A stretch of 64,000 bases of DNA from an uncultured Methanoregulaceae archaeon (GCA_963705255.1 OY970061.1:512001-576000), one strand, 5' to 3'. Shown: positions 3,638 to 61,117, counted from the first letter of the stretch. The notes: a model not told the origin generated them from the letters alone. Program-made: numbers and translations.

Positions 3638-4080
3638 ACGCTCTTGGGGGCGACGAACCTCACGGAACGTGAGGTGAGGCGGGAGAAGAACGCGAAGCGT
3701 TCTTCGACTATCTCGAATCCGCAGTCGAAGAATTCTGACGAATTCGGCGAAGCCTGCGGGCTTCTTCTGTCTCAAGTCTGATGACTCTCGACATTCTCCA
3801 ATTAATCCTCGCTGTGTGACGAAGGAACACGAGAAGAGAGCCATAAGGCTCTCTTCGCTGATGCGACGATTAATTCCCCGCCGCTGGGGCATCCCCCATA
3901 ATGTGATAATCACTCAGAAGGCAAGCGAGAAATTCCCAAAGGAAGGGAGGAATAATTGACGGGTCGAAGATTTACTTCGTAAATCTTCTCCTCTTCGAGG
4001 TCTGAAGACCTCTCGGAGATTCAAGGGGACGCGCCCCTTGGGCTGCCTCCCCCTCTGGGGGAGAGAGGGGGTCACCCTCA
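3638..4080 (+). repeat. Palindromic host repeat B carrying five nested two-hairpin mini-elements
   Basis: Matches the reverse complement of the uninterrupted copy 51198-51382 once inserts 3651-3709, 3723-3875 (containing 3746-3793 and 3815-3860) and ~3963-4020 are removed. Confidence 0.9.
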
Positions 4081-4148
4081 CATACATTCCAGAATCTTTT
4101 TCCAGTCTGGTCCTTACCCGGAATCCCGCTTTAGAAAATACATTTGCG

Positions 4149-4976
4149 TTATTTTCCGCGTCTCGCCATGACAGCCAGAAGCAGGCCTGCTACGGTAACA
4201 GCACCGATGACCGGTAAAGGAGAGAGCGGGGACTTGGTCTCCGTAGGCCACGGGGTCGGGACCGTAATGGTGGTCATGGTTTTCTGCACCGGTGCAACGG
4301 TCGTCGGCACAGCGGTTATCACCGCCGTTGCAGGTGCTGCGACCGTGAAGGTAGCCCTCCCGATATATCCGTTTGCATCCGAGAAATCCACCTCATATTC
4401 TCCTGCCGACGTGACGATCACGTTCTGGCTGAACGTTCCCGCACCGGTCCGCATGTCACTGGTGGTCCCGATCCACTGTGGCCCGAACATCCGCCCGTTC
4501 GGGCCGGTGACTTCAATCTCAACGCCTGCAGAGCCTTCTTTTGCTACAGAGCCCGCGATCGTAAGTGCGTTATCAAGGTTCTGGGTCAGGGCCGATGTCA
4601 CCGTGAGATCCCCGGAGCGGTCGATCACCTGGACAAACTGGAGGGTCACCGAATCGGACCGGGCGGTCAATGACCCGGGGACCTGTGCTTCGACCTTGTA
4701 ATTTCCCCCGGGCAGGCCGGTAGTATCGAAAATCGCAGTCTGGTTTTTCTGGTCACCCTGGCTGGTTACGGTCTGGCTACTGACTTCGGTTGCGGTATAC
4801 TGCGTCTGGTACAGGACAACAGTAAATGCGGTTCCAGCCGGGAAGTCCCCGCCAAGAGTACACTGGAGCGGAACACCGGTCTGGACCTTGGGGGGGCAGG
4901 TGAGGTAGACCCCGTAGGCCGATACTGTTCCCACGATGCACATCAGGAACAGTGCGATGAATATGAACCGTTTCAT
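4149..4976 (-). CDS. Secreted/cell-surface protein with Thr/Pro linker and C-terminal TM plus basic tail
   Basis: Signal peptide MKRFIFIALFLMCIVGTVSA, beta-rich body, ends KSPLSPLPVIGAVTVAGLLLAVMARRGK. Confidence 0.8.
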   Translation of the reverse strand: MKRFIFIALFLMCIVGTVSAYGVYLTCPPKVQTGVPLQCTLGGDFPAGTAFTVVLYQTQYTATEVSSQTVTSQGDQKNQTAIFDTTGLPGGNYKVEAQVPGSLTARSDSVTLQFVQVIDRSGDLTVTSALTQNLDNALTIAGSVAKEGSAGVEIEVTGPNGRMFGPQWIGTTSDMRTGAGTFSQNVIVTSAGEYEVDFSDANGYIGRATFTVAAPATAVITAVPTTVAPVQKTMTTITVPTPWPTETKSPLSPLPVIGAVTVAGLLLAVMARRGK

Positions 4977-5146
4977 ACCTACAGGTTCGAATGGCTGAAA
5001 TTAAAATGATATCCCTTGGACTCAAGCGTGAGGATGCAGGAGAACATACCTGCAGGTTATGGGAACAGCCAGCGGACTCCCGGAACATAATCAAAAACTG
5101 AAAGACCGGAAAAGAACGGTACAGGCAGGAAAGGTGCGGCCGCGGA

Positions 5147-5752
5147 TCAGATCATGCCGATGAAATTTTTCAGGATGCGGAGACCCGCGGCCCCGCTTTT
5201 TTCCGGGTGAAACTGGACACCGTACGCATTGCCGTTCCCGACCGATGAAGCGAACCGGCAGATATAGTCCGTGGACGTGAGCGTATACTCCGGCAGGGTA
5301 TCCGCATGGTAGGAATGAACGAAGTACACGTATTCTTCTTTCCCGAGACCGGCAAAGAGCGGGCAGTCGTCCTTCGCGAGGGTGAGCGAGTTCCAGCCCA
5401 TGTGGGGTACCTTGAACCCCGGCACGCGGGGGAACCTTCTGACGCCCCCGGGAATGAGCCCGAGCCCCGCGTGGAGCCCGTGTTCCTCGCTCGTCTCCAT
5501 GAGCATCTGCATGCCAAGGCAGATGCCGAGGAGCGGCACGTCGCGTGCGGCGTTCACCACGGTCGTTTTCAGTTCCCCGAGCTGTTCCATCCCTTCATGG
5601 AATGCCCCGACCCCGGGGAGAACGAGGCCTTCAGCAGCAGCGATCTCTTCTGCACTGCCGGTTATGACCGCATCCGCCCCGGCTTTTTCAAGCCCCCGGA
5701 TAACGCTGCGGAGGTTTCCAAGACCGTAATCAACAATGGCTATCTTCGTCAT
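5147..5752 (-). CDS. hisH: Imidazole glycerol phosphate synthase, glutamine amidotransferase subunit
   Basis: DYGLGNLRSV, LPGVGAF, GICLGMQ, VPHMGWN, YFVHSY, QFHPEKS. Confidence 0.97.
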   Translation of the reverse strand: MTKIAIVDYGLGNLRSVIRGLEKAGADAVITGSAEEIAAAEGLVLPGVGAFHEGMEQLGELKTTVVNAARDVPLLGICLGMQMLMETSEEHGLHAGLGLIPGGVRRFPRVPGFKVPHMGWNSLTLAKDDCPLFAGLGKEEYVYFVHSYHADTLPEYTLTSTDYICRFASSVGNGNAYGVQFHPEKSGAAGLRILKNFIGMI

Positions 5753-6221
5753 CCTCACGTTCCTCCCGGATCCGCCACCGCCCCTCCGGGACCCATGCCG
5801 GCGGGAGTCCCCGGGCCCGCTGCCATTCCGACAGCCGGCGGGGCCGGTCCTCCCGGAGGTCCGGGTATTCCTCTGCGATCATATGGATCAATGCCATATC
5901 GCTTGACGGGCACATGAAACAACCGATCCGGCCGGGGCGGCGCCCGTACGGGATGTTCCAGGGTGCCGAATCCGGCACCTTGTTCAGGAGCGCCAGGTGC
6001 CCCTCCGGAATGAGGGGAACCCCGAAACGCTCTCCGTAGATCCGGTTGATACGCGCCACGTCGGCGGGAAATGCGGGGCGTGCATCTCCCCGGGGGGTCA
6101 ACGGCACCTCGCGGGTCCCTGCGCCGCAGGAGCACCTGCGGGCCAGTACCCGGAGAATGGCAGGTATCGCACCAGCGCAGAAGGATCCTGCCAGGATATG
6201 GGGGGGCATCTCTCTAATCAT
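5730..6221 (-). pseudogene. Internally deleted PAPS-reductase-family (Cys-rich) gene remnant
   Basis: N-terminal-type segment (CSCG...TPRGDARPAF...LLNKVPD) joined directly to C-terminal RIGCFMCPSSD...GRWR; the central several hundred residues appear absent. Confidence 0.65.
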
Positions 6222-6346
6222 ACGTCATGCGGGGTTAAAAAGGGAAGGGGGACGCCGCAGGCTCCCGGACTCCTGACGGCAGGTCAGGTGCGTTGCTGAT
6301 GCGGGAGTATTGATATATACCATTCTTTCCCACTTTACTGGGACGC

Positions 6347-6607
6347 ATGATCGACACATGGCTTGTTGCCGCACTCTGCTTCTCTCTCCTGACATTCGGA
6401 GCGCTCTTCCGGGTGAACCGCGCCAGGACATGGTACGACGGACTTGTAGCGGCAGTCGTTGCCATCACCCTTGCAGCAGGGGCAGGACTCTTCCTGAGTA
6501 TCACGCTGGGAAACCTCCTTGTCCTTGACGGGACCATCATCGCAGCGCTGACGGCCTACATCATCGTCATTGCGCTCGCAAAATTCCCGGGAGGCGATCG
6601 GGAATGA
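6347..6607 (+). CDS. Mrp/Mnh subunit F-like small membrane protein
   Basis: 86 aa, three TM segments, pattern R...T..D.LVA; ATGA overlap with the next gene. Confidence 0.65.
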   Translation: MIDTWLVAALCFSLLTFGALFRVNRARTWYDGLVAAVVAITLAAGAGLFLSITLGNLLVLDGTIIAALTAYIIVIALAKFPGGDRE

Positions 6608-6975
6608 ATCCGGCAGCCGACATTCTCATATGGGTTCTCCTGGTCGCCGGGGTGGGTTTTGCAGCCCTCGGGTTCACCGCCCTTCTGATATTTCCTGATA
6701 TCCGAAGCCGGATGTATACCGCGGTAAGGGCAACCATCATCAGTGCCGGAGCGTCTGCAACCGCCATTATTGTTTTCGGGCTGAATGCCCTGCTCGGGGG
6801 CGGCGGTTACCAGTACCTTACGCTCATCCTGCACACCCTGGTTCTGTTCTGTGTCATCGTAACTGCCAGTCTGGTCATCTCCGGGATAATTCTTGAAAAG
6901 ACCCGTTCCCCGGAATTCTGTACGGCATCCGCCCGCACAGCTCCTGCGGAAACGGATGAAAAAGATACATCCTGA
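6604..6975 (+). CDS. Mrp/Mnh subunit G-like membrane protein
   Basis: G..ALLIFPDIRSRMYT resembles the MrpG G..R.PD.Y.R.H signature; three TM segments. Confidence 0.7.
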   Translation: MNPAADILIWVLLVAGVGFAALGFTALLIFPDIRSRMYTAVRATIISAGASATAIIVFGLNALLGGGGYQYLTLILHTLVLFCVIVTASLVISGIILEKTRSPEFCTASARTAPAETDEKDTS

Positions 6976-7069
6976 AAAAAATTCTGATATCGTCTGTCCT
7001 GCTGAATTTCACGGGAGGAAGAAATTCACGTGAAAAAAGGGCGCCCGGAAGGTCTCCCCCCGGCCGGAA

Positions 7070-7408
7070 TTACTCTTCGGCGGGCGGGGCCTCTTCCGGC
7101 TCCATGAAACAGAGCACCCCGGATATCCCCAGGATGATAACCGCGGGCAGATAGAGGAAGAGCAGGTTGAGCGTCCCTGCGAGCGGGACGGACAGGGTGA
7201 TGAAAATCGCCGAAAAGAGGAGCATCCACCCGGCAAACCGCGTCTCTTTGTTCGCGATTGCGACCCCCATCAGCCCGAGACTTGAGAAGAGTGCGGTCTG
7301 GACCCCGGAGAGGGTCACGTCATGCGATGGTGCAGAAAGTATGACAAAGAGTGCGGTCAGGATCCCAAGGACACTCCCGGTGACCCCCAGTATGAACTGT
7401 CTTTTCAT
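7070..7408 (-). CDS. Small four-TM membrane protein, function unknown
   Basis: MKRQFILGVTGSVLG..., hydrophobic throughout, acidic tail. Confidence 0.7.
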   Translation of the reverse strand: MKRQFILGVTGSVLGILTALFVILSAPSHDVTLSGVQTALFSSLGLMGVAIANKETRFAGWMLLFSAIFITLSVPLAGTLNLLFLYLPAVIILGISGVLCFMEPEEAPPAEE

Positions 7409-7782
7409 GTTTTTTAAAAAGGTGCGGGTGAGGATAAATGTTGCCCTCCGGAAAAATGCGGCCCGCTCACTGCCTGCAAACGACTGGTATGCCCGGAACA
7501 CCTTCAGAATGCGCGTTTTTTTCCAAACGGACGGTCATTTTTGAAATTGCAAATCCTTTGATTTGTTGAGTTTTTTGAAAACCGGGCAAAATTGTAACAA
7601 TTGCGCATTTTCTGATGTATTACTTTGATAATCAGTTTTTTCCTAATATCGCGCCAGTTTTCTTTGGTAAAAGTGGTGGTTTAGTGCAATTCTATGCCTC
7701 AAAATGCCATTGCGACCAAAATATTTATTAATTGATAGATTAAGAGAAAATATAACCCTTTCCGGTAGGAGGTGGAAACCAC

Positions 7783-7860
7783 ATGGCAGCAGCAAAGAAG
7801 GCGGCAAAGAAGCCGGAAGCAAAGAAGCCCGCAAAGAAGGCGGCAGCAAAGAAGAAATAA
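7783..7860 (+). CDS. 25-aa Ala/Lys/Pro-rich histone-H1-like micro-protein (MAAAKKAAKKPEAKKPAKKAAAKKK)
   Basis: GGAGGTG SD at 7768-7774, ATG at 7783, TAA at 7858-7860, AT-rich TATA-like tract near 7718-7735; below the ORF-track size cutoff. Confidence 0.75.
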   Translation: MAAAKKAAKKPEAKKPAKKAAAKKK

Positions 7861-8065
7861 TCTTTGCAGTTATTTTACACATTTTTTCGCAGCGATTTTT
7901 TTCCGGATCTCCAAGAACGGATTCCGGAATGGCTCTTGAAACCCGGCAGATACGCAGTTTTTTCAACAACCGGCGCGTGACGACCAGAACCGGCACGCTA
8001 CCGGATTAAACCGCCCGGGACCTGGCACCCCACCATGAATTTTCCGGCAATAAAAAAATCCCTGG

Positions 8066-9148
8066 TTAACCAACCAGCACCGGATAATCGGTATATCCTC
8101 TCTCCTCACCTTCATAGAACGTTGCAGCATCCTCCTGGTTCAGGGATGCGTGCCTCCGGAACCGCTCGGGAAGATCCGGGTTGGCGAGGAACGGGACGCC
8201 AAACGCGATGAGGTCGGCTCCACCCTCCTCTATTGCCGCTGTTGCACTCTGCCCGTCATATCCCCCGTTGAGCATGAGAGCTCCGCCGAATTTCGCCCGG
8301 ATGACGGAAGCCAGCCGGTTACCGGCTGCCGGGACCGGCGTCCTGCCCCCGAGAGACTCTACCAGGTGGACGTACCCGATACCAATCCTGCCCAGCCCCT
8401 CAACAAGGCAGGAGAAGGTCTCCCGGGGATTTGAATCCGCCATGCCATGGACCAGGAAATGCGGCGAGATCCGGTACCCGACCCGTTTCCCGCCCCAGAC
8501 ACGGGCAACTGCCCCGGCGACCTCGAGCGGGAGGCGTGCCCGGTTCTCTATGCTGCCGCCATAGGTGTCGGTCCGCCGGTTCGAACCGTCCCGCAGGAAC
8601 TGGTCCAGCAGGTAGCCGTTGGCCCCGTGAACCTCGACGCCATCGAAACCCGCAGCCTTCGCATTCACCGCCCCGTCCCGGAACTGGCCGATGATGGAGG
8701 GGATCTCGTCGATCCCGAGTGCACGGGGGACCGGGATCATCTTCTTGGCACCGGACGGCGTGTGGATCTCCTCGCCGACGGGGAGCGCTGAAGGAGCCAA
8801 TGGGAGTGCGCCGCCAAGGAAATCCGGGTGCGACATCCGCCCCACGTGCCAGAGCTGGAGAAAGATCTTCCCACCGGCTCCGTGTACGGCTGCGGTCACT
8901 TCCTTCCAGCCGGCGACCTGCCCCTGCGAGTAGATCCCGGGAGTCCGCTGAAAACCGACACCCATGGGGCTCACCTGGGACCCCTCGGTTATGATGAGCC
9001 CTGCCGATGCCCTCTGCCGGTAATAGGTGACCGAGAGCGGGCCGGGAACATTGCCTTCGAGTGCGCGGCAGCGGGTCATGGGCGCCATGACCATGCGGTT
9101 CGGGAGCGTCAGATCGCCAAGAACATACGGAGAGAACAGGCTCATCAT
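8066..9148 (-). CDS. Old yellow enzyme / NemA-like alkene reductase
   Basis: NRMVMAPMTRCRA, LQLWHVGR, GFDGVEVHGANGYLLDQFL, NRRTDTYGGS, GYTDYP. Confidence 0.93.
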   Translation of the reverse strand: MMSLFSPYVLGDLTLPNRMVMAPMTRCRALEGNVPGPLSVTYYRQRASAGLIITEGSQVSPMGVGFQRTPGIYSQGQVAGWKEVTAAVHGAGGKIFLQLWHVGRMSHPDFLGGALPLAPSALPVGEEIHTPSGAKKMIPVPRALGIDEIPSIIGQFRDGAVNAKAAGFDGVEVHGANGYLLDQFLRDGSNRRTDTYGGSIENRARLPLEVAGAVARVWGGKRVGYRISPHFLVHGMADSNPRETFSCLVEGLGRIGIGYVHLVESLGGRTPVPAAGNRLASVIRAKFGGALMLNGGYDGQSATAAIEEGGADLIAFGVPFLANPDLPERFRRHASLNQEDAATFYEGEERGYTDYPVLVG

Positions 9149-9271
9149 TGCTCCTTTGTGTCGGGAAACGGGTTGCTCCCGACCTTCTCCGGGCAACCCG
9201 GGAATGGCTCCGGTCTCCTGCAGGCCTGAGACTGCGCGGACGGGGTTTTCCCTGTTCCCTTGGAAACGATA

Positions 9272-9802: not shown

Positions 9803-9915
9803 GGTGAGAGATAGTCCCATTCCCTGTTTTCAAAAAATGAAAGATAGTATCAGGACCGGATAGTGCAGGGAGGCATATCCGGGAGAGACCCGGGTTCTGT
9901 GAATGTCTCCGGGAA

Positions 9916-21152: not shown

Positions 21153-21320
21153 GTGATGAACGCCGCCGCCCCCGGCGGGGCGCAGTCGAAGAACTCTGAT
21201 GAGTTCTTCTCCAGCCAATCTTTGCTGAAGCAACTATTGTCTCCCCGTGGCGGATCAGTGACGAATAAATTCTGAAAACCTTCCTGCCCCGCCGTGCCTC
21301 GGAGAGGCCCTGAGGCGGGG
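21153..21320 (+). repeat. Bipartite palindromic repeat A with a 59-nt mini-element inserted (21184-21242)
   Basis: Aligns with 57107-57220; the left arm GGGGCGC^CCCCG is split by the insert. Confidence 0.88.
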
Positions 21321-21358
21321 AACCCTCGCTCCTATGAATTTTCCGATCCGGCCTCCAC

Positions 21359-21420
21359 GGTCGAAGAACTCTGATGAGTTCTTCTCCTCCTCGAGGTTCT
21401 GACGAACCTCTTCGGATTCT
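21359..21420 (+). repeat. Stand-alone two-hairpin mini-element abutting the nitroreductase stop codon
   Basis: TCGAAGAACTC-TGAT-GAGTTCTTCTC then TCC-TC-GAGGTTC-TGAC-GAACCTC-TTC-GGA. Confidence 0.85.
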
Positions 21421-33196: not shown

Positions 33197-33442
33197 GGGA
33201 TTCACCGGCGCCGTGCTTTCCGGTCGGACGTCTATAACCTGTTATCGTCAACCATATTTATTTTTGAGGTTGACAAACTCCGGAATTCACAACCCGGGCC
33301 GGCACCTGCTCTCCTCACCGGCTCTTGCCAAACGCCCCACTCTCACCGGCCAACGGCTGCACCATCGCGCAAGAACCGGCCCGGCATCAGGGCCACTGGC
33401 AGATTCACCCTATGAGCTGCAATCCCATCCTGGTATAATCGC

Positions 33443-33804
33443 TCACTTCCGCGCTTCTTCGCTCTTAAGGATCTGTCGGATCTCGGTTTTCAGGTCAGGC
33501 AGTTTGTTTGTAGCGTTATCCCAGAGGATCGTATATTTGATCCCGAAATAGACATGGGTGAGGACGTCGCGGAACCCGGCAATCTTTTTCCAGTCCGTAT
33601 TGGGATACCGCTCCTTGAGATCGTCCGGGAGTTTTTCATCGCTTCCCCAATAACCTGAAAATTCCTGATAACGGCATCCCGGCGTCGGCGGTCATGAGAA
33701 AATTCTTCGAATGAGATCCCGCTTGTATCCTCTTCGATATTGCCGATTGATTCGAGGATATCGTCAAGGTACTGGAGCACGGTCCTACGTATAGACGACC
33801 TCAC
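33443..33804 (-). CDS. HepT/DUF86 HEPN ribonuclease toxin, with an indel in an A-run near 33635
   Basis: YLDDILESI, DAVIRNFQVIGEA, then in the shifted frame WKKIAGFRDVLTHVYFG (RX4HXY). Confidence 0.82.
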
Positions 33805-34070
33805 TGAGGATGTAGGGTTTAAGCCGTTTCTTGATTGCACCTTTCATGATGAGATCGACATTGCGCCCGAACAGGTCTTCGAGATAGAACTTGCAATCCA
33901 TATAGTTTATCGAAAGTCTCCTCTCCTTCCCGGAACGTTACGAGAACGTCAACGTCACTTTCCGGCCGCGCCTCTCCCCGTATAAATGAACCAAAGATGC
34001 CAATTGTTGCAATCCCGAACCGTTTCTTCAGTTCCGGTTCGTGCTGACGGAGGAGTTTAAGAACATCCAT
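33785..34070 (-). CDS. MntA-like minimal nucleotidyltransferase antitoxin, with an indel near 33905
   Basis: IFGSFIRGE...SDVDVLV; continues YMDCKFYLEDLFGRNVDL...KPYILSEV in the next frame. Confidence 0.82.
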
Positions 34071-34375
34071 AAATTTTCTGTACGTGAGAGTTTGTGTGTT
34101 TCTGATATTAATGCATTGACGGTTTTGGGCTTTATCCCGAAGCTAATTCTTATCCCCCGATGGCTATAGCATGAGGAGAGCCCACTCATACCATAACGGC
34201 CAGCCTCTGCCCGGAATTTTTCAACCAGACCTTGCAGGAAAAATTTTAACCGATCCCCAGACCCCGGCCTGAAAAAGACGCGAATGAAAGTCTCCTGGAT
34301 TGTATGAACGGCTGCTGAAAATGCCTGGCTTTTCAGACCATTGTAACCGGTCATGCGGTGGAAAAGCGGGTCTGG

Positions 34376-35632
34376 TCAGGGCGGATGATCGCCAGCCCCC
34401 CACCGTTTCCGGATCCCCTGCGCCGCCAGGTACCCGGTCGAGAACGCGACCTGCAGGTTGTAGCCTCCGGTATCCCCGTCGATGTCCAGCACTTCGCCGG
34501 CAAAAAACAGCCCGGGCACGATGGTCGATTCCATGGTCTTCTGGTTAACGCCCTCCAGCGCAACGCCGCCGCGGGTGGCCATCGCGACGGAATATTCTCC
34601 GAGCGCGGCAACCGTCAGCGGGAATTCCGTGCAGTTCGTGACTAGTTTCGATCGCTGCGCTGCCGGGAAGTGGGAGCATTTGAGGTCATCCGGGATGCCG
34701 GACAAGACCAGCAGTTTTTTGTTGAGGCGCTCCGGGATCGGGTACGCGGCAAGGATGGTCCGGACCTGCCAGCCGGGGTTCTCCTGCACGCGCTTAGCAA
34801 GGTCAGCGGCAAACTCCTCGCGTCTCATGGCGCCCACAAACGAGAGCCGGATACCATCCCCTGCCCGGATATCCCGCGATGCATCCAGGATGCCAGGGCC
34901 GGAAAGGCCAAGGTGCGTGAAGAGGAGATCCCCGGAATAATCCGCAACTTTCTTCCCGTCCCTCCAGACCGAGAACGGAAGGGACTCAAACGAGATGCCG
35001 GAGAGCGCTGCAAACGGGAAGTTGCCGATCTTCAGCGGGGCGAGTGCCGGTGCGGTCTCCGTCAGCGGCTGGCCAAGTGCTGCAGCGAAGCGGTACCCGT
35101 CACCGGTCGAGCCGGTCAGCGGATAGGACCTACCGCCGGTGGTAATGACGACTGCGCCGGCACGGTATAAGGTTGTGCCGGTCTGTACGATAAACCCCTC
35201 CTGGTCCTGCACTATCTCCTCAACCTGCTCCGCACACCTCAGTTCCACGCCCCGCTTCCCGCATTCCCGTACGAGGATCGAGAGGACGTCCGCCGAGGCG
35301 CGGGTCTCCGGGAACACTTTCCCGTCCTCACCGGCCGCCATCCCAAGGCCGCGCTCAGAAAAGAAACGGACGAGGTCGTCGTTGGTAAAACCATGGAGGG
35401 CCGGCTTGAGGAACCTGCCGTTCTTCCCGTAGTGCGATAGAAATTCAGCAACCGTGCCGGTATGAGTGATGTTGCACTGCCCCGACCCGGTGAGCAGGAG
35501 CTTGGCGCCCGGCATCGCATTTTTTTCCAGGAGCACGACCCGGCGGCCCGGCACGGCAGCATGGACTGCACAGAAGAGCCCGGCCGGCCCGCCCCCGATC
35601 ACCACGGCATCGGACTGTTCGATCGCGATCAC
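34376..35632 (-). CDS. HI0933/BaiN-family flavoprotein
   Basis: GGGPAG, KLLLTGSGQCNIT, TGSTGDGY, LFTH.GLSGP, GDTGGYNLQ.AFSTG. Confidence 0.93.
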   Translation of the reverse strand: MIAIEQSDAVVIGGGPAGLFCAVHAAVPGRRVVLLEKNAMPGAKLLLTGSGQCNITHTGTVAEFLSHYGKNGRFLKPALHGFTNDDLVRFFSERGLGMAAGEDGKVFPETRASADVLSILVRECGKRGVELRCAEQVEEIVQDQEGFIVQTGTTLYRAGAVVITTGGRSYPLTGSTGDGYRFAAALGQPLTETAPALAPLKIGNFPFAALSGISFESLPFSVWRDGKKVADYSGDLLFTHLGLSGPGILDASRDIRAGDGIRLSFVGAMRREEFAADLAKRVQENPGWQVRTILAAYPIPERLNKKLLVLSGIPDDLKCSHFPAAQRSKLVTNCTEFPLTVAALGEYSVAMATRGGVALEGVNQKTMESTIVPGLFFAGEVLDIDGDTGGYNLQVAFSTGYLAAQGIRKRWGAGDHPP

Positions 35633-35718
35633 TTCCCGGATACCGTAGGTTGCCCGGGTTTAGATAGATCGTCCCAGGGCCCGGCGCCGGGGAATCGCCT
35701 CACTATCCGGCAGGATTC

Positions 35719-36076
35719 ATGAGGGCGACCCCCTCTCTCAGGTCGCAGAACTCTGACGAGTTCTTCTCCAGTCTGCTCTTCCCTTCGGGAACAGCAGTCT
35801 CCCTAGAGGGGGGAGGCATCCCAAAGGGAGCGCCCCCTTGACCCCCTCCTATTATTCATCCAGTTCTCTGAAAATTTCTCACTAACCTTCTGAGTGATTA
35901 TCGCGCTGTGGGGGATGCCACAGCGGCGGGGAATTAACCGTCGCATCAGCGAGGGTTAATTGGAGAAGAATTCATCAGAATTCTTCGACTGCGAAGGCGA
36001 CAGCATTCGAAGAACCCTCCGGGTTCTTCTCAAGCCTGTTCTTCCCTTCGGGAACAGCAGTCTCCCCCAAGAGCGT
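35719..36076 (-). repeat. Host repeat B with three mini-elements (35740-35800, 35932-35990, 36005-36063)
   Basis: Collinear with 51198-51382 after the inserts are removed. Confidence 0.9.
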
Positions 36077-36134
36077 CTTTTTTTATCTCTTCAAAGCAGG
36101 AAAAACAAAAAAAACCGAAAACTAAAAAACCAAT

Positions 36135-36416
36135 TTATGCGTGATGGCTTTTTGCTCGCTTGCGCAGGGCCTCGGCATAGTGGTGGCGGAGTTCTGCGGT
36201 CTCCTCTGCAGTAAAATCTTTCTTTTTTGTGGCGTGGAGGTGCTTTTCCATCTGTTTTACGATATGCTCGGCCTCGTGGTAATCCTCGACCTCGAGATAC
36301 GCGGGTGCCCTGGCAACCTCATGCGCATGCCCGCAGAGCGGACAGAGTTTCCAGCGCTGGAAACGGTCCACGTAGGAGAACGTCCTGCATCCCGGGCAGC
36401 GGATGATGAGGTACAT
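36135..36416 (-). CDS. DUF1922-like zinc-ribbon protein
   Basis: MYLIIRCPGC...LCPLCG. Confidence 0.75.
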   Translation of the reverse strand: MYLIIRCPGCRTFSYVDRFQRWKLCPLCGHAHEVARAPAYLEVEDYHEAEHIVKQMEKHLHATKKKDFTAEETAELRHHYAEALRKRAKSHHA

Positions 36417-36560
36417 GGTAATCAGGTGATGGGTGCTATCCTCATAAAAATATATCGGCGGACGGTTAAAACGTTTCACCGGATTTCTCCCGGTTATATG
36501 ACGGATGCCCCAAAAACCCGGAGCATACAAGGCCCTGTCTTCGTGCAGGGTATACCGTGG

Positions 36561-39864: not shown

Positions 39865-40076
39865 GGGTACAATGTTCATGGGTAAACCAAAAAATGTTTG
39901 TAATCAGTCCAAAAATATCCGGGGATCAGATTTGCTTGAATGCCGTGATAATGAATTCACTTCGTGCCCGGGCATCGCGCAGGTCAGGTATCTCCGGTTG
40001 GAGTAAAAAAGGCAGAGGCACGGATGCGCTGAGTGGGAAGAAAAGGCTTTGGAGAAATCATAGGTTTTCATCTTAG

Positions 40077-40371
40077 ACGCTCTGAGGGCTACGGCATCTG
40101 ATCCCTCCCCGCTGCTTAGGCATCCCCCATAGAGAGATAGTCCCTTAAAAGGTTAGTGAAAATCCTGCCGAAAATGGGGTCGCAGATTTACTTTGTAAAT
40201 CTTCTCCTCTTCGAGGTCTGAAGACCTCTCAGAGATTCAAGGGGATGCTCCCCCTGCGTTGCCCCCCTTCTGGGGGCAGACTGATGTTCCCGAAGGGAAA
40301 TCGCGGAAGGTTGTCTCTCTTTTACCATTGCGATGAACGCCGCCGCCCCCGACGGGGCGCCCCCGCGGCGG
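40077..40371 (+). repeat. Host repeat B (mini-element 40179-40236, remnant 40278-40299) followed by the left arm of repeat A (40330-40371)
   Basis: Similarity to 3638-4080 and 57107-57148. Confidence 0.85.
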
Positions 40372-51085: not shown

Positions 51086-51197
51086 TTTTTTGCGTGCAGT
51101 AATTCCCGGCTTTTTTCCGTTAGAAAATTTCCGTTTTATTTTTCTCTCTGCAGAAAACCTGTCAGTGTCCATTTTTTGTAAACCACTTGAAAAGGCT

Positions 51198-51401
51198 ATG
51201 AGGGTGACCCCCTCTCTCCCCCAGAGGGGGAGGCAGCCCAAGGGGCGCATCCCCTTGACCCCCATCTATTATTCCTCCCGTTTCTGAGAATTTCTCGCTA
51301 ACCTTCTGAGTGACTATCCTATCATGGGGGATGCCCAAGCGGCGGGGGCGGAGGCAACGATTGCCGTAGCCCCCAAGAGCGTGAGAGGCCCTGAGGCGGG
51401 G
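51198..51401 (-). repeat. Uninterrupted 185-bp host repeat B (51198-51382) fused to a partial right arm of repeat A
   Basis: Chain of hairpins; serves as the empty-site reference for the other copies. Confidence 0.9.
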
Positions 51402-53247: not shown

Positions 53248-53301
53248 ATCCACAGGTTCGTTATGGCATTGTAAATATATTGTCGTTTCAGTGAATGACG
53301 G

Positions 53302-54455: not shown

Positions 54456-54465
54456 TTTGTACTGT

Positions 54466-55047: not shown

Positions 55048-55145
55048 TATCCGGATCGTTCCCCTCAAATTCCGGGTAAAACCCAAAACGCTATAATTAA
55101 AGTATGACGATATACTGTATAAGAGATTGTGTTAAGGGGTAAGCG

Positions 55146-55889
55146 ATGTTAAAAGCAACGATCGACACAGACATATTCAGGGAAGCTATCGAAGCGATCT
55201 CGGCTCTCATCCCTGAGTGCCGGCTGCATACGGATGAGGCCGGCATCTCCACGCGGGCGGTCGATACCGCCAATGTGGCGATGATCGGACTGACTCTCAA
55301 GAAGGAAGCATTCGATTCGTACAAGGCAACGAAGAGCCAGCTCGGTATTGACCTGATGAAGATGAAGAACATCTTCGGCATGTCCGGAAAGGGCGACCTC
55401 ATCAGCATCGAGATGGCTGACAATGCCCAGAAGATGTCGGTCTCGGTGCACGGCTACCACTATTCGATCACGCTCCTCGACACCAATACCATCCGGAAAG
55501 ACCCGAACCCTCCCACCATCAACCTGCCGGGCAAGATCGTGATCAAAGGCGAAGACCTGAACAATGCGATGAAGGCCGCGGCAGTGATCTCCGACAAGAT
55601 CGCGCTCGGGATCAACCCGAAGGACCAGACCTTCTACCTTGTGGCCGAAGGGGATACCGACCACATCCGGCGGGAATTCTCCAAGGACGAGCTCGTATCG
55701 CTCACCCCGGTTGAAGCCCGTTCGCTCTTCTCCCTCGATTACCTGAAAGACATGGGGAAGGTCATGAGCAAGGCGGCGGAAGTCGAGATTTACCTGGGCG
55801 TCGACCACCCGGTCAGGTTCTCGTTCGATATTGCGGGTGGCAACGGGCATGTCGAGTACCTCCTCGCACCCCGGATAGAGGCTGACTGA
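55146..55889 (+). CDS. pcn: DNA polymerase sliding clamp PCNA
   Basis: RAVDTANVAM, SLFSLDYL, YLLAPRIE. Confidence 0.97.
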   Translation: MLKATIDTDIFREAIEAISALIPECRLHTDEAGISTRAVDTANVAMIGLTLKKEAFDSYKATKSQLGIDLMKMKNIFGMSGKGDLISIEMADNAQKMSVSVHGYHYSITLLDTNTIRKDPNPPTINLPGKIVIKGEDLNNAMKAAAVISDKIALGINPKDQTFYLVAEGDTDHIRREFSKDELVSLTPVEARSLFSLDYLKDMGKVMSKAAEVEIYLGVDHPVRFSFDIAGGNGHVEYLLAPRIEAD

Positions 55890-57010
55890 TGGACTACAGC
55901 CCATCGGCAAAGGAACTTTCCCATTTCCCCTTTTTAAAAAAAGCCCAGGACCATGTCAAGAACTCTTTCCCTCCGATCGATGTGCTGTTGGCCGGAAAGA
56001 AAGGGGCGTTCCTGACCGACCTTGCCGTGAAGCGAATCAATCAGGCCCTCTCCTCAAAAAAGACCATCGTTGCGCATTTCCAGAACCATGACGATGACGA
56101 GATTGCAGGGTATGTTCTTTCCCGGATCCTTGTCTCCTGCATCAACGACAAACAGCTGTTCGACCGCCTCACCCGGTACGAAGCTGAGCGTGCCTACTAT
56201 TTTCTCAATTCCGAGACCGGATCTGAGAGCGAGAGGGGCTGGAACGAGAACACGGTTCTCGATGAAGACAATAACAGCCGGATACTCGCTTACCTGGCAC
56301 GGGAGTTCCGGATCGACATAACAAAGGACCGGATGCCCCTTGCAGATTATGTTGAGATAGTATCCCCGCTCCACGAGGCCCGGTTCAAACTGGTAAACCG
56401 CCGGGTGGAGAACGGGCAGGTGGAGATCCGGAAGGAGGAACTGCTCGAACTGCTCCGCGAAAGGATCCGTGTCATCCTCCGGCGGGATCTTCCCTATAAA
56501 GTCCCGAAGAAGATCTGTGAACAGCTCGGGCCGGTCGCGGAACACATAAAGAAAAAGTACCAGGAGCAGATGCTCCGCCAGTTCGGCACGATTGAGGAGA
56601 GCGCGTTCCCCCCCTGCATGCAGGCCCTCATGGCAGCCCTCACGTCCGGGACAAACCTGACCCATGCCGGCAGGTTCTCCCTGACGACCTTCCTGCATAC
56701 GATCGGCATGGATGTCAGCGGCATCGCCCGGCTCTACGCCCGCTCACCGGACTTCGACCTGGAGAAGACCATGTACCAGGTGGAACACATTACCGGGCGG
56801 GGCGGTTCCGGCACCGAATATACCGCGCCCGCCTGCGCCGCGATGCGTACCACCGGGCTCTGTGTCCACCGGGACCCCCTCTGCGAACGGGTTGCCCACC
56901 CCCTGAGTTATTACACGGTGAAGAAGAAGGATCAGAAAGTGAAAGGGAAGAAGGGCGACGAGAAGAAGGAAGAAAAGCAGGAAGAGAAAACGCCGACATC
57001 GTCCACGTGA
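55889..57010 (+). CDS. priL: DNA primase large subunit
   Basis: FPPCM, NLTHAGRF, PDFD..KT.YQVEHI, Y..PAC..M...GLC, HPLSYY. Confidence 0.95.
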   Translation: MDYSPSAKELSHFPFLKKAQDHVKNSFPPIDVLLAGKKGAFLTDLAVKRINQALSSKKTIVAHFQNHDDDEIAGYVLSRILVSCINDKQLFDRLTRYEAERAYYFLNSETGSESERGWNENTVLDEDNNSRILAYLAREFRIDITKDRMPLADYVEIVSPLHEARFKLVNRRVENGQVEIRKEELLELLRERIRVILRRDLPYKVPKKICEQLGPVAEHIKKKYQEQMLRQFGTIEESAFPPCMQALMAALTSGTNLTHAGRFSLTTFLHTIGMDVSGIARLYARSPDFDLEKTMYQVEHITGRGGSGTEYTAPACAAMRTTGLCVHRDPLCERVAHPLSYYTVKKKDQKVKGKKGDEKKEEKQEEKTPTSST

Positions 57011-57106
57011 TCCTTCTTCAGGTCAGGAGATTTCAATTATTCTGCTGCAATCCCGAAAAAACATTTGGATATGGTTTATGGGGGTTGAGACCCCCATTCC
57101 CCCTTC

Positions 57107-57220
57107 GCGATGAACGCCGCCGCCCCCGGCGGGGCGCCCCCGCGGCGGGTTGATTGCCTGTTTTCTAAAATATGATCGGTAATTTGCCCCGCCGTGCCCC
57201 GTAAGGGGCCCTGAGGCGGG
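57107..57220 (+). repeat. Uninterrupted bipartite repeat A (left arm 57107-57148, 36-bp spacer, right arm 57185-57220)
   Basis: Both GC-rich hairpin arms recur at 21153-21320 and at 40330-40371 / 41095-41140. Confidence 0.88.
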
Positions 57221-57325
57221 AGTCCTCACATAGTTTCAGATTTAAGATAGTAGTCGCTACCGTTTCGGATAATTCAAAAATAGACGGGTGGAACTTATCC
57301 CCCCCGGAAAAATTATGAAGTCGTA

Positions 57326-57532
57326 TCAGGTAATCTTCTCGTTGACCAGGTATCCTGCGCCGGAGAGGAAGACGATGAAGATGACGATTGCCGCAAGGTA
57401 GGCAAAACTTGCGACCTGTTCAAGGGGTAGCGCCAGGACAAGGGCGAATGCCATGGGCAGAACGGCAAGCAGTACGATCAGCAGGATAAAAGCGATCACG
57501 CCGATGATCACGTCAAGAAGTCGCGCGTCCAT
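57326..57532 (-). CDS. Small two-TM membrane protein
   Basis: 68 aa, hydrophobic. Confidence 0.7.
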   Translation of the reverse strand: MDARLLDVIIGVIAFILLIVLLAVLPMAFALVLALPLEQVASFAYLAAIVIFIVFLSGAGYLVNEKIT

Positions 57533-57629
57533 TCATAGCATTTTCGACACGGGAGAATATAGGTTTATCCAATATGCAGAGGACGACCTCCCGTTAACCT
57601 CATGACCCCCGGCTCCAAACCATCTGCTT

Positions 57630-58181
57630 ATGGAACGAACCGGAGCTGTTGCACTTCTCGCACGGTATGTCCATGATAAAAATCTCACCCGGCACTGCCT
57701 TGCCACCGGTGCCGTGATGAAGAAAGCCGCGGAATTCCTGTCGGAAGACGCTGTGACATGGGAAACGATCGGGATCCTCCACGATATCGACTTTGAGCTC
57801 GTCGGCGGCGACATGGGCCGCCACGGTACTGAAGGAGCCGGGATCCTGGTCCGTGAGGGTATCGACAGAGAACTGGCGGAAATCATACAACGCCACAACC
57901 ACTTCATCTATCGCGGGACGTACGAACGCCCCGTCGAGATCGTGCTGCAGGCAGCGGACAGCGTCTCCGGGCTGGTGTTTGCGTGCGCTCTCGTAAAAGG
58001 CGGGAAGATCTCCGACGTCACCCCGAAGACCGTAGGAAAAAAGATGAAAGATAAAGGGTTTGCGGCCGGGTGCGACCGGGACCGGATCGGGCTCATCCGG
58101 GCAGTGATGGATCCCGTAGTCTTCTACGAGCTGGCAATACAGGGGCTCAGGGAGATCCGTTCAGAACTTGACCTTACGTAA
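57630..58181 (+). CDS. HDIG-domain metal-dependent phosphohydrolase
   Basis: HCLA, ILHDIDFE, H, HN, AADS, FAAGCDR. Confidence 0.9.
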   Translation: MERTGAVALLARYVHDKNLTRHCLATGAVMKKAAEFLSEDAVTWETIGILHDIDFELVGGDMGRHGTEGAGILVREGIDRELAEIIQRHNHFIYRGTYERPVEIVLQAADSVSGLVFACALVKGGKISDVTPKTVGKKMKDKGFAAGCDRDRIGLIRAVMDPVVFYELAIQGLREIRSELDLT

Positions 58182-58228
58182 AACCAACCGGGAGGTTTAA
58201 TTGCCCACCCGGTAACCTCTGGAATGGT

Positions 58229-58774
58229 ATGAACAACCCGGCACAGGAACGAAACGACGTCATGGACCGGCTGGCACAAGCAGTTGCCCTGCTTGAAGGG
58301 TCACTGGACCGCCGCCTCATCCCTGAACACGGTCTCCCGCTCGGGTACGCCATCAGGGGTGCGCGGGACAGCCACGGTGTTGCGGCCGTGCAGGGGGGGA
58401 TCGTGGCCGGAGAGACAAAACCCCGTGCCGCAGGCCCCTGCGGGTTCGGCATGGATGACGGGATCGCGGGAATTATCCTGACTGCAATGAAGTTCGACCC
58501 GCTGATGCGGAGTGCAGCGTCGGTCCAGTTCACCGGGCGGGCGCGTGCGGTGCTGGAGGATGACCTGTTCCTCGAATGCGTTACCGGTGATCCCAGACAG
58601 GTATCTGAGGGAATCAGCACGATGGACTGGGGTGTCGCCTCCTGCTGCAGGGATGGCGTACCGGACGTGATATTCAGGCCGGGTGCGGGGGGAAACGTAT
58701 CCCGAATCCTTCTTTTCGGCGAGGATCCGGTCGGCGTTGCAAACAATATCATTATCTGCTCAAACCGCATTTAA
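58229..58774 (+). CDS. ThiN-family (thiamine-phosphate synthase-like) domain protein
   Basis: LIPE.G..LGYA, VAAVQGGI, MKFDP.MRSA, VPDVI, LFGEDP. Confidence 0.82.
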   Translation: MNNPAQERNDVMDRLAQAVALLEGSLDRRLIPEHGLPLGYAIRGARDSHGVAAVQGGIVAGETKPRAAGPCGFGMDDGIAGIILTAMKFDPLMRSAASVQFTGRARAVLEDDLFLECVTGDPRQVSEGISTMDWGVASCCRDGVPDVIFRPGAGGNVSRILLFGEDPVGVANNIIICSNRI

Positions 58775-58800
58775 AATATAGAATTCTTGAGGAATTGTAC

Positions 58801-58992
58801 ATGGGAATCAAGCCGTCATATATCAAAACGCTCGGTAACGAACTTGTGGCGAAACAGCGCGACAAATTCTCGAATAACTTCGAAGAGAACAAGCAGCAGC
58901 TCGGTACTTCCGCAGTCATCGGGAGCAAGCGTGTCCGGAACCGCGTCGCCGGATACATTACAAGAAAAATAAATACCAAAAGACGCTCATAA
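58801..58992 (+). CDS. rps17e: 30S ribosomal protein S17e
   Basis: MGIKPSYIK...FEENK...SKRVRNRVAGYITR. Confidence 0.96.
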   Translation: MGIKPSYIKTLGNELVAKQRDKFSNNFEENKQQLGTSAVIGSKRVRNRVAGYITRKINTKRRS

Positions 58993-59000
58993 CCCTATTC

Positions 59001-59966
59001 ATGTTTGAAGGCGTCCTTCCGGCAATCATTACCCCTTTTAAAAGAAACCCTTCCATGAGCCTTGACATCCAGGGCCTTGACCGCAACATTGGGTTTCTCC
59101 TCTCCCGTGGCATCCACGGGATTGTTCCCTGCGGATCGACTGGTGAATCTGCGACTCTTACCTTTGAAGAGCACGAAAAGGTCATTGAGCTCACGGTCGG
59201 GAAGGTCAACGGAAAGATCCCGGTGCTCGCCGGTACCGGTTCCAACAACACTGCCGAGGCAGTGCGACTGACGAAGGCCGCGAAGGACATCGGTGCGGAC
59301 GGGGTGCTCGTCATCAGTCCGTACTACAACAAGCCGAACCGGGCAGGTCTCATCAAGCACTACACGAAACTTGCGGACCTTGACATCCCGGTGGTCGTGT
59401 ACAACGTTCCGGGGAGGACCGGCCAGAACCTTGAGCCGGATCTCATCGCAGAACTGGCGCAGCACCCCAACATCGTCGGTGTCAAGGAAGCGAGCGGCAA
59501 TATCGGGCAGATCTCGCGGATCCTCGAAGAGACGCAGGATGAGGATTTTGCGGTCATATCCGGTGACGACAATATCACGCTGCCGATAATTGCGCTCGGC
59601 GGATCCGGTGTCATCTCGGTTGCGGCCAACGTCGATCCTGCACGGATGGTCGCGATGTACGAGGCCATGAAATGCGGCGACTACCAGAAGGCGCTGGTGC
59701 TCCACTATGCCCTCTCCCCCCTGTTCCGCTCCATGTTCATCGATACCAACCCGATCCCGGTGAAGAAGGCGGTGGAACTGATCGGCCTAGCAGGCGGCCC
59801 GGTGCGTCTCCCGCTCGACGAACTTGATGAGAAAAAGACCGAGCAGCTGAAGAAGGTTCTCGCCACCGTCCCTGCAAAGGCGGCGGCAAAGGCAAAGCCG
59901 GCTGCGAAGAGACCGGTGAAGAGAGCAGCGCCAAAAGCAAAACCCGCCCAGAAACGCACCCGGTGA
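59001..59966 (+). CDS. dapA: 4-hydroxy-tetrahydrodipicolinate synthase with Ala/Lys/Pro tail
   Basis: GSTGES, PYYNKP, YNVPGRTG, GVKEASG, TNPIPVK. Confidence 0.97.
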   Translation: MFEGVLPAIITPFKRNPSMSLDIQGLDRNIGFLLSRGIHGIVPCGSTGESATLTFEEHEKVIELTVGKVNGKIPVLAGTGSNNTAEAVRLTKAAKDIGADGVLVISPYYNKPNRAGLIKHYTKLADLDIPVVVYNVPGRTGQNLEPDLIAELAQHPNIVGVKEASGNIGQISRILEETQDEDFAVISGDDNITLPIIALGGSGVISVAANVDPARMVAMYEAMKCGDYQKALVLHYALSPLFRSMFIDTNPIPVKKAVELIGLAGGPVRLPLDELDEKKTEQLKKVLATVPAKAAAKAKPAAKRPVKRAAPKAKPAQKRTR

Positions 59967-59973
59967 GCGGCTT

Positions 59974-60738
59974 ATGGCAAGAGTCGTCGTGTGCGGCGCC
60001 TTCGGGCGCATGGGCCAGACCATCGGCCGGATGGTCAACGAGTCGAAGGACCTCGAGCTCGTCGGGGGTATCAACCTGAAGCCCGGATCGTTCTTCGGGG
60101 TGGAGATCGTTGAGGCGAAGGACGCCGAGGCGCTCCTGAAGAGGACGAAGGCCGAGGTGCTGATCGACTTCACGGTCGCCAGCGCCGCTGTCGGGAACGT
60201 GAAGATGGCGGCCCGCAACAACTGTGCCCTCATTGTCGGCACCACCGGTATCACCGCGGAGCAGCGGGCCGAGATGGAGAAGGCAATCCAAGGTCATGTC
60301 CCGGCGGTCATCTCCAGCAACTTCTCGATTGGCGTCAATATCTTCTTGAAGCTGGTACGGGAATCGGCAAAGCTCCTCAGGGACTATGACATCGAGGTGA
60401 TCGAAGCCCACCACCGGAACAAGAAGGACGCCCCGAGCGGCACGGCAAAGACGATCCTGCAGATCCTCGACGAGGAAGCCGGCCAGCGCAAAAAGATGTA
60501 CGGCCGGGAAGGGATGACCGAACGGCAGAACGAGATCGGCGTCCACGTGATCCGCGGTGGGGATATTGTCGGGGACCACAAGGTCATGTTCTCGAAGAAC
60601 TTCGAGACTATCGAACTTTCGCACCGGGCCTATGACCGGTCGGTCTTTGCCAGCGGTGCCCTTACCGCGGCACGCTGGGTTGTCGGGAAGAGACCCGGTA
60701 TCTATGGCATGAGCGATGTGCTCGGGTTGAGGAAATAA
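59974..60738 (+). CDS. dapB: 4-hydroxy-tetrahydrodipicolinate reductase
   Basis: GAFGRMG, IDFT, GTTG, EAHHRNKKDAPSGTA. Confidence 0.97.
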   Translation: MARVVVCGAFGRMGQTIGRMVNESKDLELVGGINLKPGSFFGVEIVEAKDAEALLKRTKAEVLIDFTVASAAVGNVKMAARNNCALIVGTTGITAEQRAEMEKAIQGHVPAVISSNFSIGVNIFLKLVRESAKLLRDYDIEVIEAHHRNKKDAPSGTAKTILQILDEEAGQRKKMYGREGMTERQNEIGVHVIRGGDIVGDHKVMFSKNFETIELSHRAYDRSVFASGALTAARWVVGKRPGIYGMSDVLGLRK

Positions 60739-60842
60739 TCGCCCCTTTTTAAAAATGCCGATTGAATAATTTGCATAAATTCCGGTTTTGTTGAAACCTT
60801 TTTCTGATCATTTGCTTATACTATTCTGCTGCGGTTAGGAGT

Positions 60843-61117
60843 GTGACCCCCTCTCTCAAATCGAAGAACACTCCGGGTTCGATCGAAGACCTGCGGTCTT
60901 CTCCTGTCTCAAGTCTGATGACTTTCGACATTCTCCAGCCTACTCTTCCCTTCGGGAACAGCAGTCTCCCCAGAGGGGGAGGCAACGCAAGGGGAGCGTC
61001 CCCTTGACCCCCCTTTTTTCGGCAGGATTTTCACTAACCTTCTGAGGGACTATCTCTATATGGGGGCTGCCCAAGCGGCGGGGGCGGAAGCATGAAGTGC
61101 TGGAGCCCCCAAGAGCG
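60843..61117 (-). repeat. Host repeat B with a mini-element (60858-60967) itself interrupted by another (60881-60930)
   Basis: Collinear with 51198-51382 and 35719-36076. Confidence 0.88.

Follow-up and report, generated by a model that had tools for sequence, protein, structure and literature searches.

IS200/IS605 elements insert seamlessly, carry subterminal hairpins, and use a single-stranded substrate, and in the attC sites of integrons a folded single-strand structure is conserved rather than a sequence and insertion likewise leaves no duplication. Repetitive extragenic palindromic (REP) sequences, bacterial interspersed mosaic elements (BIMEs), and REP doublets forming hairpins (REPINs), with their REP-associated tyrosine transposases (RAYTs), are short repeated palindromes of intergenic DNA in which a conserved tag precedes the hairpin on its 5′ side; they occur in mosaic clusters, show a bias to the 3′ ends of genes, and expand in specific lineages. 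One study reports REPs inserted within small palindromic targets (PMC3733652), and according to another, the GIY-YIG nuclease Ssn needs GTC directly before a hairpin to cut single-stranded DNA (PMC11893778). Here, we describe a family of two-hairpin units of 50 to 62 nt in a 64,000-nt stretch of DNA from an uncultured Methanoregulaceae archaeon (the window; G000:C1:512001-576000), and we conclude that these units form a mobile element family in Methanoregulaceae that is real, REP-like, and recently active.

The units share with the REP, BIME, and REPIN repeats all of the features listed above and, as those do, occur in many clustered extragenic copies. They differ in being a fixed pair of hairpins with TC/TC (on the other strand, GA/GA) internal loops, in their archaeal host, and in their tag, which reads RGTC rather than the GTAG or CGTC of REPs and REPINs; in PMC3733652, archaea are named only in the reference list. 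The palindrome-associated transposable elements (PATEs) of the IS200/IS605 group resemble the units in their lack of target duplication, their fixed orientation beside a short specific sequence, their subterminal hairpins, and a substrate that is likely single stranded, but here the whole unit is only 50 to 62 nt long. The Ssn motifs (NTS/SRM, the CGTC-tagged REP superfamily), as presented in the main text of PMC11893778, also have GTC directly 5′ of a hairpin; they are orientated, are read as single-stranded DNA with a loop sequence of no importance, and have undergone massive lineage expansion, as our units appear to. The SRM pattern HGTCWY..., however, has A or T after GTC where hairpin 1 of our units has G, a comparison made by reading rather than by running the pattern on the genome, and the main text of that paper does not mention archaea. 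Unlike integron sites, the units have no gene cassettes, and the right flank does not repeat the first bases of the unit as an attC crossover would give. One of the larger repeats that host units in the window is itself a miniature inverted-repeat transposable element with terminal inverted repeats (TIR MITE); the units differ from it in having neither terminal inverted repeats nor a target duplication. An earlier reading of the window from its sequence alone (the sequence-only reading) did not recognize the units as described in methanogens, and our search of the literature on repeats in methanogens and Methanomicrobiales, on a Methanoregula MITE, and on REPs found no description of such elements either.

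Architecture and covariation of the unit

The source genome, G000, is a single contig of 2.60 Mb with 54.6% G+C; window coordinates count from the first letter of the window, and those called genome coordinates refer to G000. Units were located by the pattern TCGAAGA-N6-20-TCTTCTC, the signature of hairpin 1, with the reversed pattern as a control, and by a covariance model, R1, whose seed was cut to 13 units because MAFFT alone misaligns hairpin 2. Counts on hairpin 2, flanks, and strand folding are based on 104 distinct units. For orthologous comparisons we used the relative G041, in which C1:1-400000 is collinear with 1.669 to 2.111 Mb of G000 at ≈96% identity; together with a further 368 kb, 628 kb were aligned.

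Each unit runs in a set order: a variable start of two or three bases, in most cases AG or GG, then TC, hairpin 1, TC, usually a C, and hairpin 2, whose last paired base is the end of the unit. The RG of the RGTC tag is seen directly before TCGAAGA, where position −1 is G in 58 of the 104 distinct units and position −2 is A in 51 and G in 34. Hairpin 1 combines a fixed outer stem, GAAGA/TCTTC, with a free inner stem of 2 to 5 bp. We found 42 distinct inner stems, with positions 1 to 4 forming Watson–Crick pairs in >95% of copies, in a set that was pre-filtered for a stable hairpin. Hairpin 2 is built of a lower stem, a TC/TC internal loop, an upper stem, and a loop that begins with T (TGAT in 17 units, TGAC in 7, and TTC in 7). 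Of the 104 distinct units, 73 have its simple two-stem form; TC occupies the 5′ side of the internal loop in 42 and the 3′ side in 39. The stem of hairpin 1 is also bracketed by TC...TC and closed by the preceding G and the following C; because it thus shares the design of hairpin 2, the two hairpins look like copies of one module.

Covariation was measured on an independent set, the 54 matches that R1 gives in the window and 788 kb of a relative. In this alignment, which is fitted to the model and therefore favors it, 95.8% of 790 cells are paired, compared with 74.0% in shuffles (none of 500 reaches the observed value) and 50 to 61% when the partners are slid. Both sides change in 13 of the 17 pairs, with a covariation score of 0.446 versus 0.114. 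The proposal that hairpin 1 keeps its signature while its inner stem covaries, and that hairpin 2 keeps a shape through unrelated sequences, is thus borne out. No described RNA family accounts for this structure in Rfam: at the gathering score the window gave only a tRNA, 20 units at E ≤ 1 gave no match, and the region 35600-36200 gave one match at chance level (E 0.43).

All 14 two-hairpin features that the sequence-only reading had listed are present in the window. R1 matches nine of the 13 full copies at E ≤ 0.001, and the other four (36005, outer 3723, outer 60858, and the small 3815) were recognized by regular expression or by reading. The copies and the two empty host repeats are as follows.

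3648..3710, minus strand: two-hairpin unit with inner stem ACGC at the right-hand site of a MITE core, then CCCCAAGAGCG (reading; R1, 40.2 bits)
3723..3875, plus strand: older unit broken by two nested insertions (genome chain 515634-516080; intact paralogue at 35931-35991)
3746..3793, plus strand: degenerate nested unit that interrupts hairpin 1 of the 3723 unit in its 3′ arm, GAATTC|...|TTCTCC (R1 match 3741-3796, 40.3 bits)
3815..3860, minus strand: small unit nested within the 3723 unit, in the loop of its hairpin 2 (reading; same composite in other genome copies)
3961..4020, plus strand: unit of the TTTAC subtype, GGG|...|TCAAGGGG, inverted relative to the C run (R1, 59.6 bits)
21183..21242, plus strand: unit within the repeat we call host B, at GGGGCGC|CCCC (empty copy 57107-57150; R1, 39.8 bits)
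21358..21419, plus strand: unit beside a rearrangement breakpoint, with no enclosing larger repeat recognized (R1, 56.7 bits)
35740..35800, plus strand: unit in the loop of the MITE palindrome CCCCCTCT...AGAGGGGG (C|CCCC); orthologous site empty in G041 and L007
35931..35991, minus strand: unit, then CCCCGCCGC; the G041 orthologue is a different variant (R1, 39.5 bits)
36005..36063, plus strand: unit before CCCCCAAGAGCG, with one extra C; another unit type at the G041 site
40177..40236, plus strand: unit of the TTTAC subtype (R1, 52.8 bits)
40278..40299, minus strand: hairpin-2 remnant (reading)
60858..60967, plus strand: unit at a C|CCCC site, carrying a nested unit
60880..60933, plus strand: nested unit at GGGTTC|...|TTCTCC of the outer hairpin 1 (R1, 62.7 bits)
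51194..51382, plus strand: TIR MITE core with all sites empty, given in the earlier reading as an empty copy
57107..57230, plus strand: empty host B repeat; many of the 61 genus genomes searched also have its right half

Insertion is exact and leaves no duplication

At the C|CCCC site of the TIR MITE, the left and right matches of filled and empty copies sum exactly to the empty sequence, so that there is no duplication and no ambiguity of the junction. The host B site gives the same exact, duplication-free junction when the filled copy is compared with the copy at 57107. It had been proposed that units insert behind the first C of a run of five, at four host positions and mostly without duplication; the exactness, the lack of duplication, the four positions, and the extra C of the 36005 copy all held, although the C5 rule proved not to be universal. 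Clean events have CCCC, TCCCCC, TTCTCC, or CCC as the right flank, apart from three with ATTTCC, AACTGA, or CTCACA, and the left flank has no consensus. Beyond hairpin 2, C stands at position +2 in 56 of the 104 distinct units, at +3 in 49, and at +4 in 58, counts that are confounded by hitch-hiking.

Orthologous sites in G041 are polymorphic, with equally exact junctions. A 50-nt unit at GGCATTC|TTCTC, in the hairpin-1 3′ arm of an older unit, is present only in G000, as are a 51-nt and a 54-nt unit that flank a small TCCCCC...GGGGGA palindrome and turn their hairpin-2 ends toward TCCCCC, each on its own strand; G041 has the palindrome alone. G000 further holds a unit of ≈55 nt and a 36-nt solo hairpin 1 that G041 does not have, and one nested unit is missing from its G041 counterpart. 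G041, in turn, has a 62-nt inverted unit between two tandem units. No duplication accompanies any single-unit difference in the 628 kb aligned. These pairs support the earlier suggestion of very small non-autonomous elements that insert precisely. At the 35.7-kb locus, G041 and L007, which have the same sequence there, lack the unit that the window has at the C|CCCC site and have units at two sites where the window has none. The remaining two sites hold different variants within nearly identical flanks, which points to replacement or conversion besides insertion.

Units also insert into one another. A scan for split copies of hairpin 1 shows that nested sister units lie directly after ...TTC and before TTCTC of the recipient hairpin 1. 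By reading, the recipients have about eight different inner stems (ACTC, ACGC, ACCC, ACAC, ATTC, ATCTGG, AATGCC, and AC), and the inserts are differing variants. Because the same bond is used in about eight recipients by varied inserts, these sequences would be hard to explain without a site-selective insertion process. Since the nested unit splits the hairpin of its recipient, the recipient must first have been whole, and the polarity of the event is fixed.

The larger repeats that host units

The larger host repeat in the window is a TIR MITE with the ends GCTCTGTAGAAAT and a 9-bp target duplication, present in 21 cleanly bounded copies in G000. The sequence-only reading had taken 51194-51382 as an empty copy of a host; that segment is indeed empty at the unit sites, but its nature as the core of an ordinary TIR MITE had been missed. 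The MITE is present in one of G000 and G041 and absent from the other at six or more places in 400 kb. Of 29 MITE cores found by BLAST, nine are uninterrupted and 12 have at least one unit in the loop of the palindrome CCCCCTCT...AGAGGGGG, always at the bond C|CCCC; other cores are filled at three or four further sites. Some units thus sit inside a repeat that is itself mobile, and part of the copy number, including much of that within the window, is therefore hitch-hiking, with only 22 of 170 hairpin-1 copies lying inside the 21 clean MITEs (degenerate MITEs uncounted). Recombinant MITEs, in which the left flank of one unit is joined to the right flank of another, occur in both genomes.

Several further observations concern these repeats. 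At genome position 2259977-2261308, one 1.3-kb pair of MITE ends encloses open reading frames of 264 and 277 residues. The right half of host B (CCCCGCCGTGC...GGCCCTGAGGCGGGG; window 21243-21328 and 57180-57230) is up to 100% identical over 53 nt and recurs in many of the 61 genus genomes, element-poor ones included; this half could be a functional motif or a repeat of much greater age. An inversion or translocation of ≈15 kb distinguishes G000 from G041, and its breakpoints (window 21348, 36472-36526, and 40033-40120) fall in element clusters. G041 has 3 bp in place of the 845-bp segment at window position 33364-34208. A comparison of 20 kb with contigs from four metagenome runs gave short-sided joints at repeats and contigs ending at elements, and one joint resembles the empty host B site, although it is not assignable to the window locus.

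Copy number and distribution

The hairpin-1 pattern occurs 170 times in G000 (92 and 78 on the two strands), compared with 1 (0 and 1) for the reversed control. A looser regular expression for hairpin 1 gave 220 matches, of which 174 form a stable hairpin, and merging of these left 170 copies. R1 finds at least 152 matches at E ≤ 0.01, a lower bound because the best 150 candidates were scored. The 170 copies fall in 107 clusters, and 161 lie outside genes as called by a crude gene caller that marks 74.7% of the genome as coding. By gap class, 57 lie between convergent genes and 23 between divergent genes, classes of about equal total length, and 81 between tandem genes. Both orientations occur, with no preference relative to genes (17/20 and 27/17).

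Within the genus, counts by pattern distinguish rich genomes (170 in G000, 178 in G019, 164 in G041, 116 in G053, and 101 in G059) from intermediate ones (33 in G002 and 27 in G022), and most other members searched have 0 to 7. We extended the search with R1 to 141 genomes of the order at E ≤ 1e-6, scoring at most the best 39 candidates per genome, so that these counts are lower bounds. Three of 10 other genus members matched, as did single genomes of two further genera of the same family (at least 16 and at least 5 matches) and, in one genus of a different family, eight of 25 genomes (one or two each), whose units share the same two-hairpin design; there were no other matches in the 141 genomes. 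Among complete genomes of the same genus, G139 has at least 33 strong R1 matches and G020 has none. The distribution is thus patchy and lineage specific.

Tandem strings of near-identical units, with no genes between the units, occur in several genomes. Related repeats were also seen. Seven tandem 59-nt repeats at genome position 360068-360500 have a start like that of hairpin 1 and a different folding, and a true unit at 360481 ends the array. Further hairpin-module families are nested with units at genome positions 867004-867523 and 2071723-2071955 and at G041:C1:108392-108446; one nesting variant has the first hairpin GAAGG-TC-GGC...GCC-TC-CCTTC, and another nesting family is an unrelated hairpin pair, AGAGGGA...TCCCTCT plus GCTTCATCC...GGATGAAGC.

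A recurrent gene family beside the units

Among genes flanked by units in G139 and G078, the only recurrent family is that of a 167-residue protein. The family is present in 56 of the 61 genus genomes, in several copies in most, and its 1304 relatives are all unnamed, with no Pfam match. Seven copies occur in G000 (among them genome 2059538-2060041 and 2469243-2469746). G139 and G078 have units just upstream of their homologs, and in G174, a member of another family, the distance is ≈400 nt. In the G000 leaders, the units stand downstream of a conserved small hairpin and ahead of the ribosome-binding site. The element-poor genomes G020, G054, and G072 have the same genes without units, and a small hairpin precedes the ribosome-binding site in most of their leaders that were read. 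Because these genomes keep the genes and the small hairpin without units, the leader is an insertion hot spot rather than the origin of the element.

The AlphaFold model of the protein is confident (predicted local distance difference test score, pLDDT, of 90). It has no sequence match in the PDB and an Atlas score of only 0.75, Foldseek returned nothing at E ≤ 0.001, and the best VIA-align Z score, 7.4 (KA1/TBP-like and other alpha-beta folds), is within the background stated for that tool. As a lead to the mover of the units, this family, whose leaders are unit hot spots, is without support so far.

Mechanism and the search for an enzyme

The two strands of the unit do not fold equally well. 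The complementary G-rich strand is the more stable in 99 of the 104 distinct units with DNA parameters (mean −15.2 versus −13.7 kcal/mol) and in 87 with RNA parameters, although the units share a motif and so are not independent trials. The TC/TC loops read GA/GA on this strand, and GA/GA internal loops form stable tandem sheared G·A pairs. Among triloops, 36 of 48 are TNC, which become GNA closed by C-G on the other strand. In most clean events, GGGG(A) or GGAGAA stands immediately 5′ of the element on the G-rich strand, the exceptions being the TTTAC subtype and the three events with other flanks, and placement of an element 3′ of a short motif on one strand is the insertion geometry of IS200/IS605. 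The better folding of the G-rich strand therefore points to a single-strand, hairpin-read mechanism like that of REP and IS200/IS605 elements.

We consider the chances about even that the units are non-autonomous mobile DNA of 50 to 62 nt, made of two homologous hairpin modules, that is read by its hairpins as a single strand and moved by an enzyme acting in trans. The substrate would be the folded complementary G-rich single strand, with its tandem G·A pairs and mostly GNA triloops, on which the element would come to lie directly 3′ of a purine run. Insertion is seamless and orientated, so that the end at hairpin 2 abuts a run of pyrimidines or of C (CCCC, TCCCCC, or TTCTCC), and often falls in or beside palindromes, inside the TIR MITE, or at the fixed position in the hairpin-1 3′ arm of sister units. 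It may proceed by single-strand, hairpin-read cut-and-paste or copy-in, as for IS200/IS605 and REP/REPIN. The enzyme would be none of the known ones, possibly a conserved host protein or one supplied by an extrachromosomal carrier; a conserved host protein could serve because the GAAGA/TCTTC signature is kept across two Methanomicrobiales families. We suggest more tentatively, as a possibility of lower probability, that this is a new kind of hairpin-read single-strand transposition in archaea, in which an element made of nothing but two G·A-bracketed hairpins would be excised and then joined 3′ of purine runs, and the enzyme would have no relation to Y1/HUH, IS110, or Ssn.

A number of observations weigh against this mechanism, both in the units themselves and in the search for an enzyme. 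CCCC follows only 19 of the 104 distinct units and TCCC eight, about a third precede a C run, and the target preference is partly confounded by hitch-hiking. The TTTAC subtype (3963 and 40179) is reversed relative to the C run, probably as one old event carried by the MITE. There is no room for guide tetranucleotides of the IS608 type because hairpin 2 starts 0 to 4 nt from the junction. Wobble pairs, at 23 versus 12 by strand over whole units and 9 versus 10 in hairpin 1, do not point clearly to one active strand, and orientation shows no clear replichore bias in a genome with a flat GC skew. In four of six full-length G000 paralogues of the 167-residue family, units lie in sense 11 to 40 nt before the start codon, where an RNA role would fit.

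The sequence-only reading had proposed a structure-reading enzyme in trans, in particular an IS200/IS605 TnpA or RAYT, with an IS110-family gene as a further candidate. A mechanism of this kind is plausible, but the enzymes proposed for it are not supported. In six-frame searches, the profile PF01797 (Y1_Tnp) had no match in any of 11 element-bearing genomes (G000, G019, G002, G022, G038, G139, G078, G053, G059, G183, and G041) and matches in six of 14 control genomes, and these 11 genomes yielded no RAYT. In the sample of 61 genus genomes, G001, G006, G016, G023, and G054 score above the family cut-off and G051 weakly, and the five carriers hold 3, 3, 4, 1, and 5 pattern matches, so that Y1_Tnp and the elements are anticorrelated within the genus. 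IS110 (PF01548, DEDD) was not found in G000, the sole genome searched for it. We found neither a TnpA in trans nor ends shared with a full-length insertion sequence. Only two TnpB-like reading frames are present, both truncated and away from units (genome 2543266-2544018 and 2035084-2035863), and R1 run with filters off over these and two other loci gave no match there at E ≤ 1. A 528-residue reverse transcriptase (genome 315964-317547) is unique to G000 among the 61 genus members. A small GIY-YIG protein of 152 residues (genome 2432625-2433083) occurs only in G000, G001, and G016; the latter two are element poor, and other rich genomes lack the gene. It lies in an AT-rich stretch flanked only by weak R1 matches and is thus not the repeat-flanked GIY-YIG gene that accompanies the Ssn motifs. 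In eight other genomes, no gene family recurs next to isolated copies. The known movers of comparable systems were thus each either not found or anticorrelated with the elements.

Other candidates were set aside. A third TnpB match is TFIIB, and a long GIY-YIG frame found in all five genomes searched is, by reading, UvrC-like. The multi-copy proteins of G000 are metabolic apart from one DDE transposase pair, and the genes that separate closely spaced element clusters have housekeeping or toxin-antitoxin functions.

Alternative explanations

The units ahead of the 167-residue genes, in sense in G000 and also present upstream in G139, G078, and G174, the strong covariation, the T-first tetraloops in both hairpins, and the bias to the 3′ ends of genes would all fit a structured RNA motif (a leader, stabilizer, or small RNA) that is selected as RNA and spread by duplication, rather than mobile DNA. 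We nevertheless regard this as unlikely, since units occur in both orientations relative to neighboring genes, copies are disrupted by nested sisters, presence and absence differ between genomes at ≈96% identity, and Rfam gave no match. The better-folding strand is, moreover, the antisense of the leader copies, and element-poor genomes have the same genes behind a leader with only the upstream small hairpin. If the units were instead ordinary PATEs derived from IS200/IS605, or REPs or REPINs, moved by a resident Y1 HUH transposase (TnpA or RAYT), one would expect, as is seen, the lack of target duplication, the fixed orientation beside a short motif, the hairpins at both ends, and the conserved tag directly 5′ of a palindrome, and the two truncated TnpB-like frames do show past residents of the IS200/IS605 type. 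Against this stand the lack of PF01797 in all 11 element-bearing genomes in a search that was positive in controls, the few pattern matches in the Y1 carriers of the genus, and the shortness of the elements relative to IS608-type guides, and we judge this explanation quite improbable.

To a similar degree we doubt that the units are immobile on their own, as modules of the TIR MITE and composite repeats that are spread by MITE transposition, recombination, and gene conversion. The MITE is active, as its presence/absence differences show, recombinant copies combine flanks of different sites, and variants are swapped at orthologous sites. However, the clean MITEs hold only a small part of the hairpin-1 copies, with degenerate ones uncounted, and single-unit differences between G000 and G041 occur with exact junctions outside recognized MITEs and inside other units; the use of one hairpin-1 bond in about eight recipient variants by different inserts also argues against it. 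Very unlikely, finally, is a by-product of replication, in which C/G runs and palindromes would provoke template switching or snap-back synthesis that copies a neighboring hairpin unit into the gap, with no dedicated enzyme. The choice of homopolymer runs and palindromes as targets, the near-identical units strung in tandem in several genomes, and the failure to find an enzyme speak for such an origin, but the left junctions share only 0 to 1 nt with the flanks, identical ends occur at unrelated sites, the RGTC tag and TC/TC loops suggest recognition by a protein, and the expansion is limited to certain lineages.

Significance

The elements described here are clearly recently active between near-identical genomes and are site selective, orientated, and self-nesting. 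REP-like hairpin repeats and their movers have so far been a bacterial story, and the present system offers a tractable route to a new DNA-hairpin-processing activity. Because the elements mark rearrangement breakpoints and remodel gene leaders, they matter for the evolution of peatland methanogen genomes.

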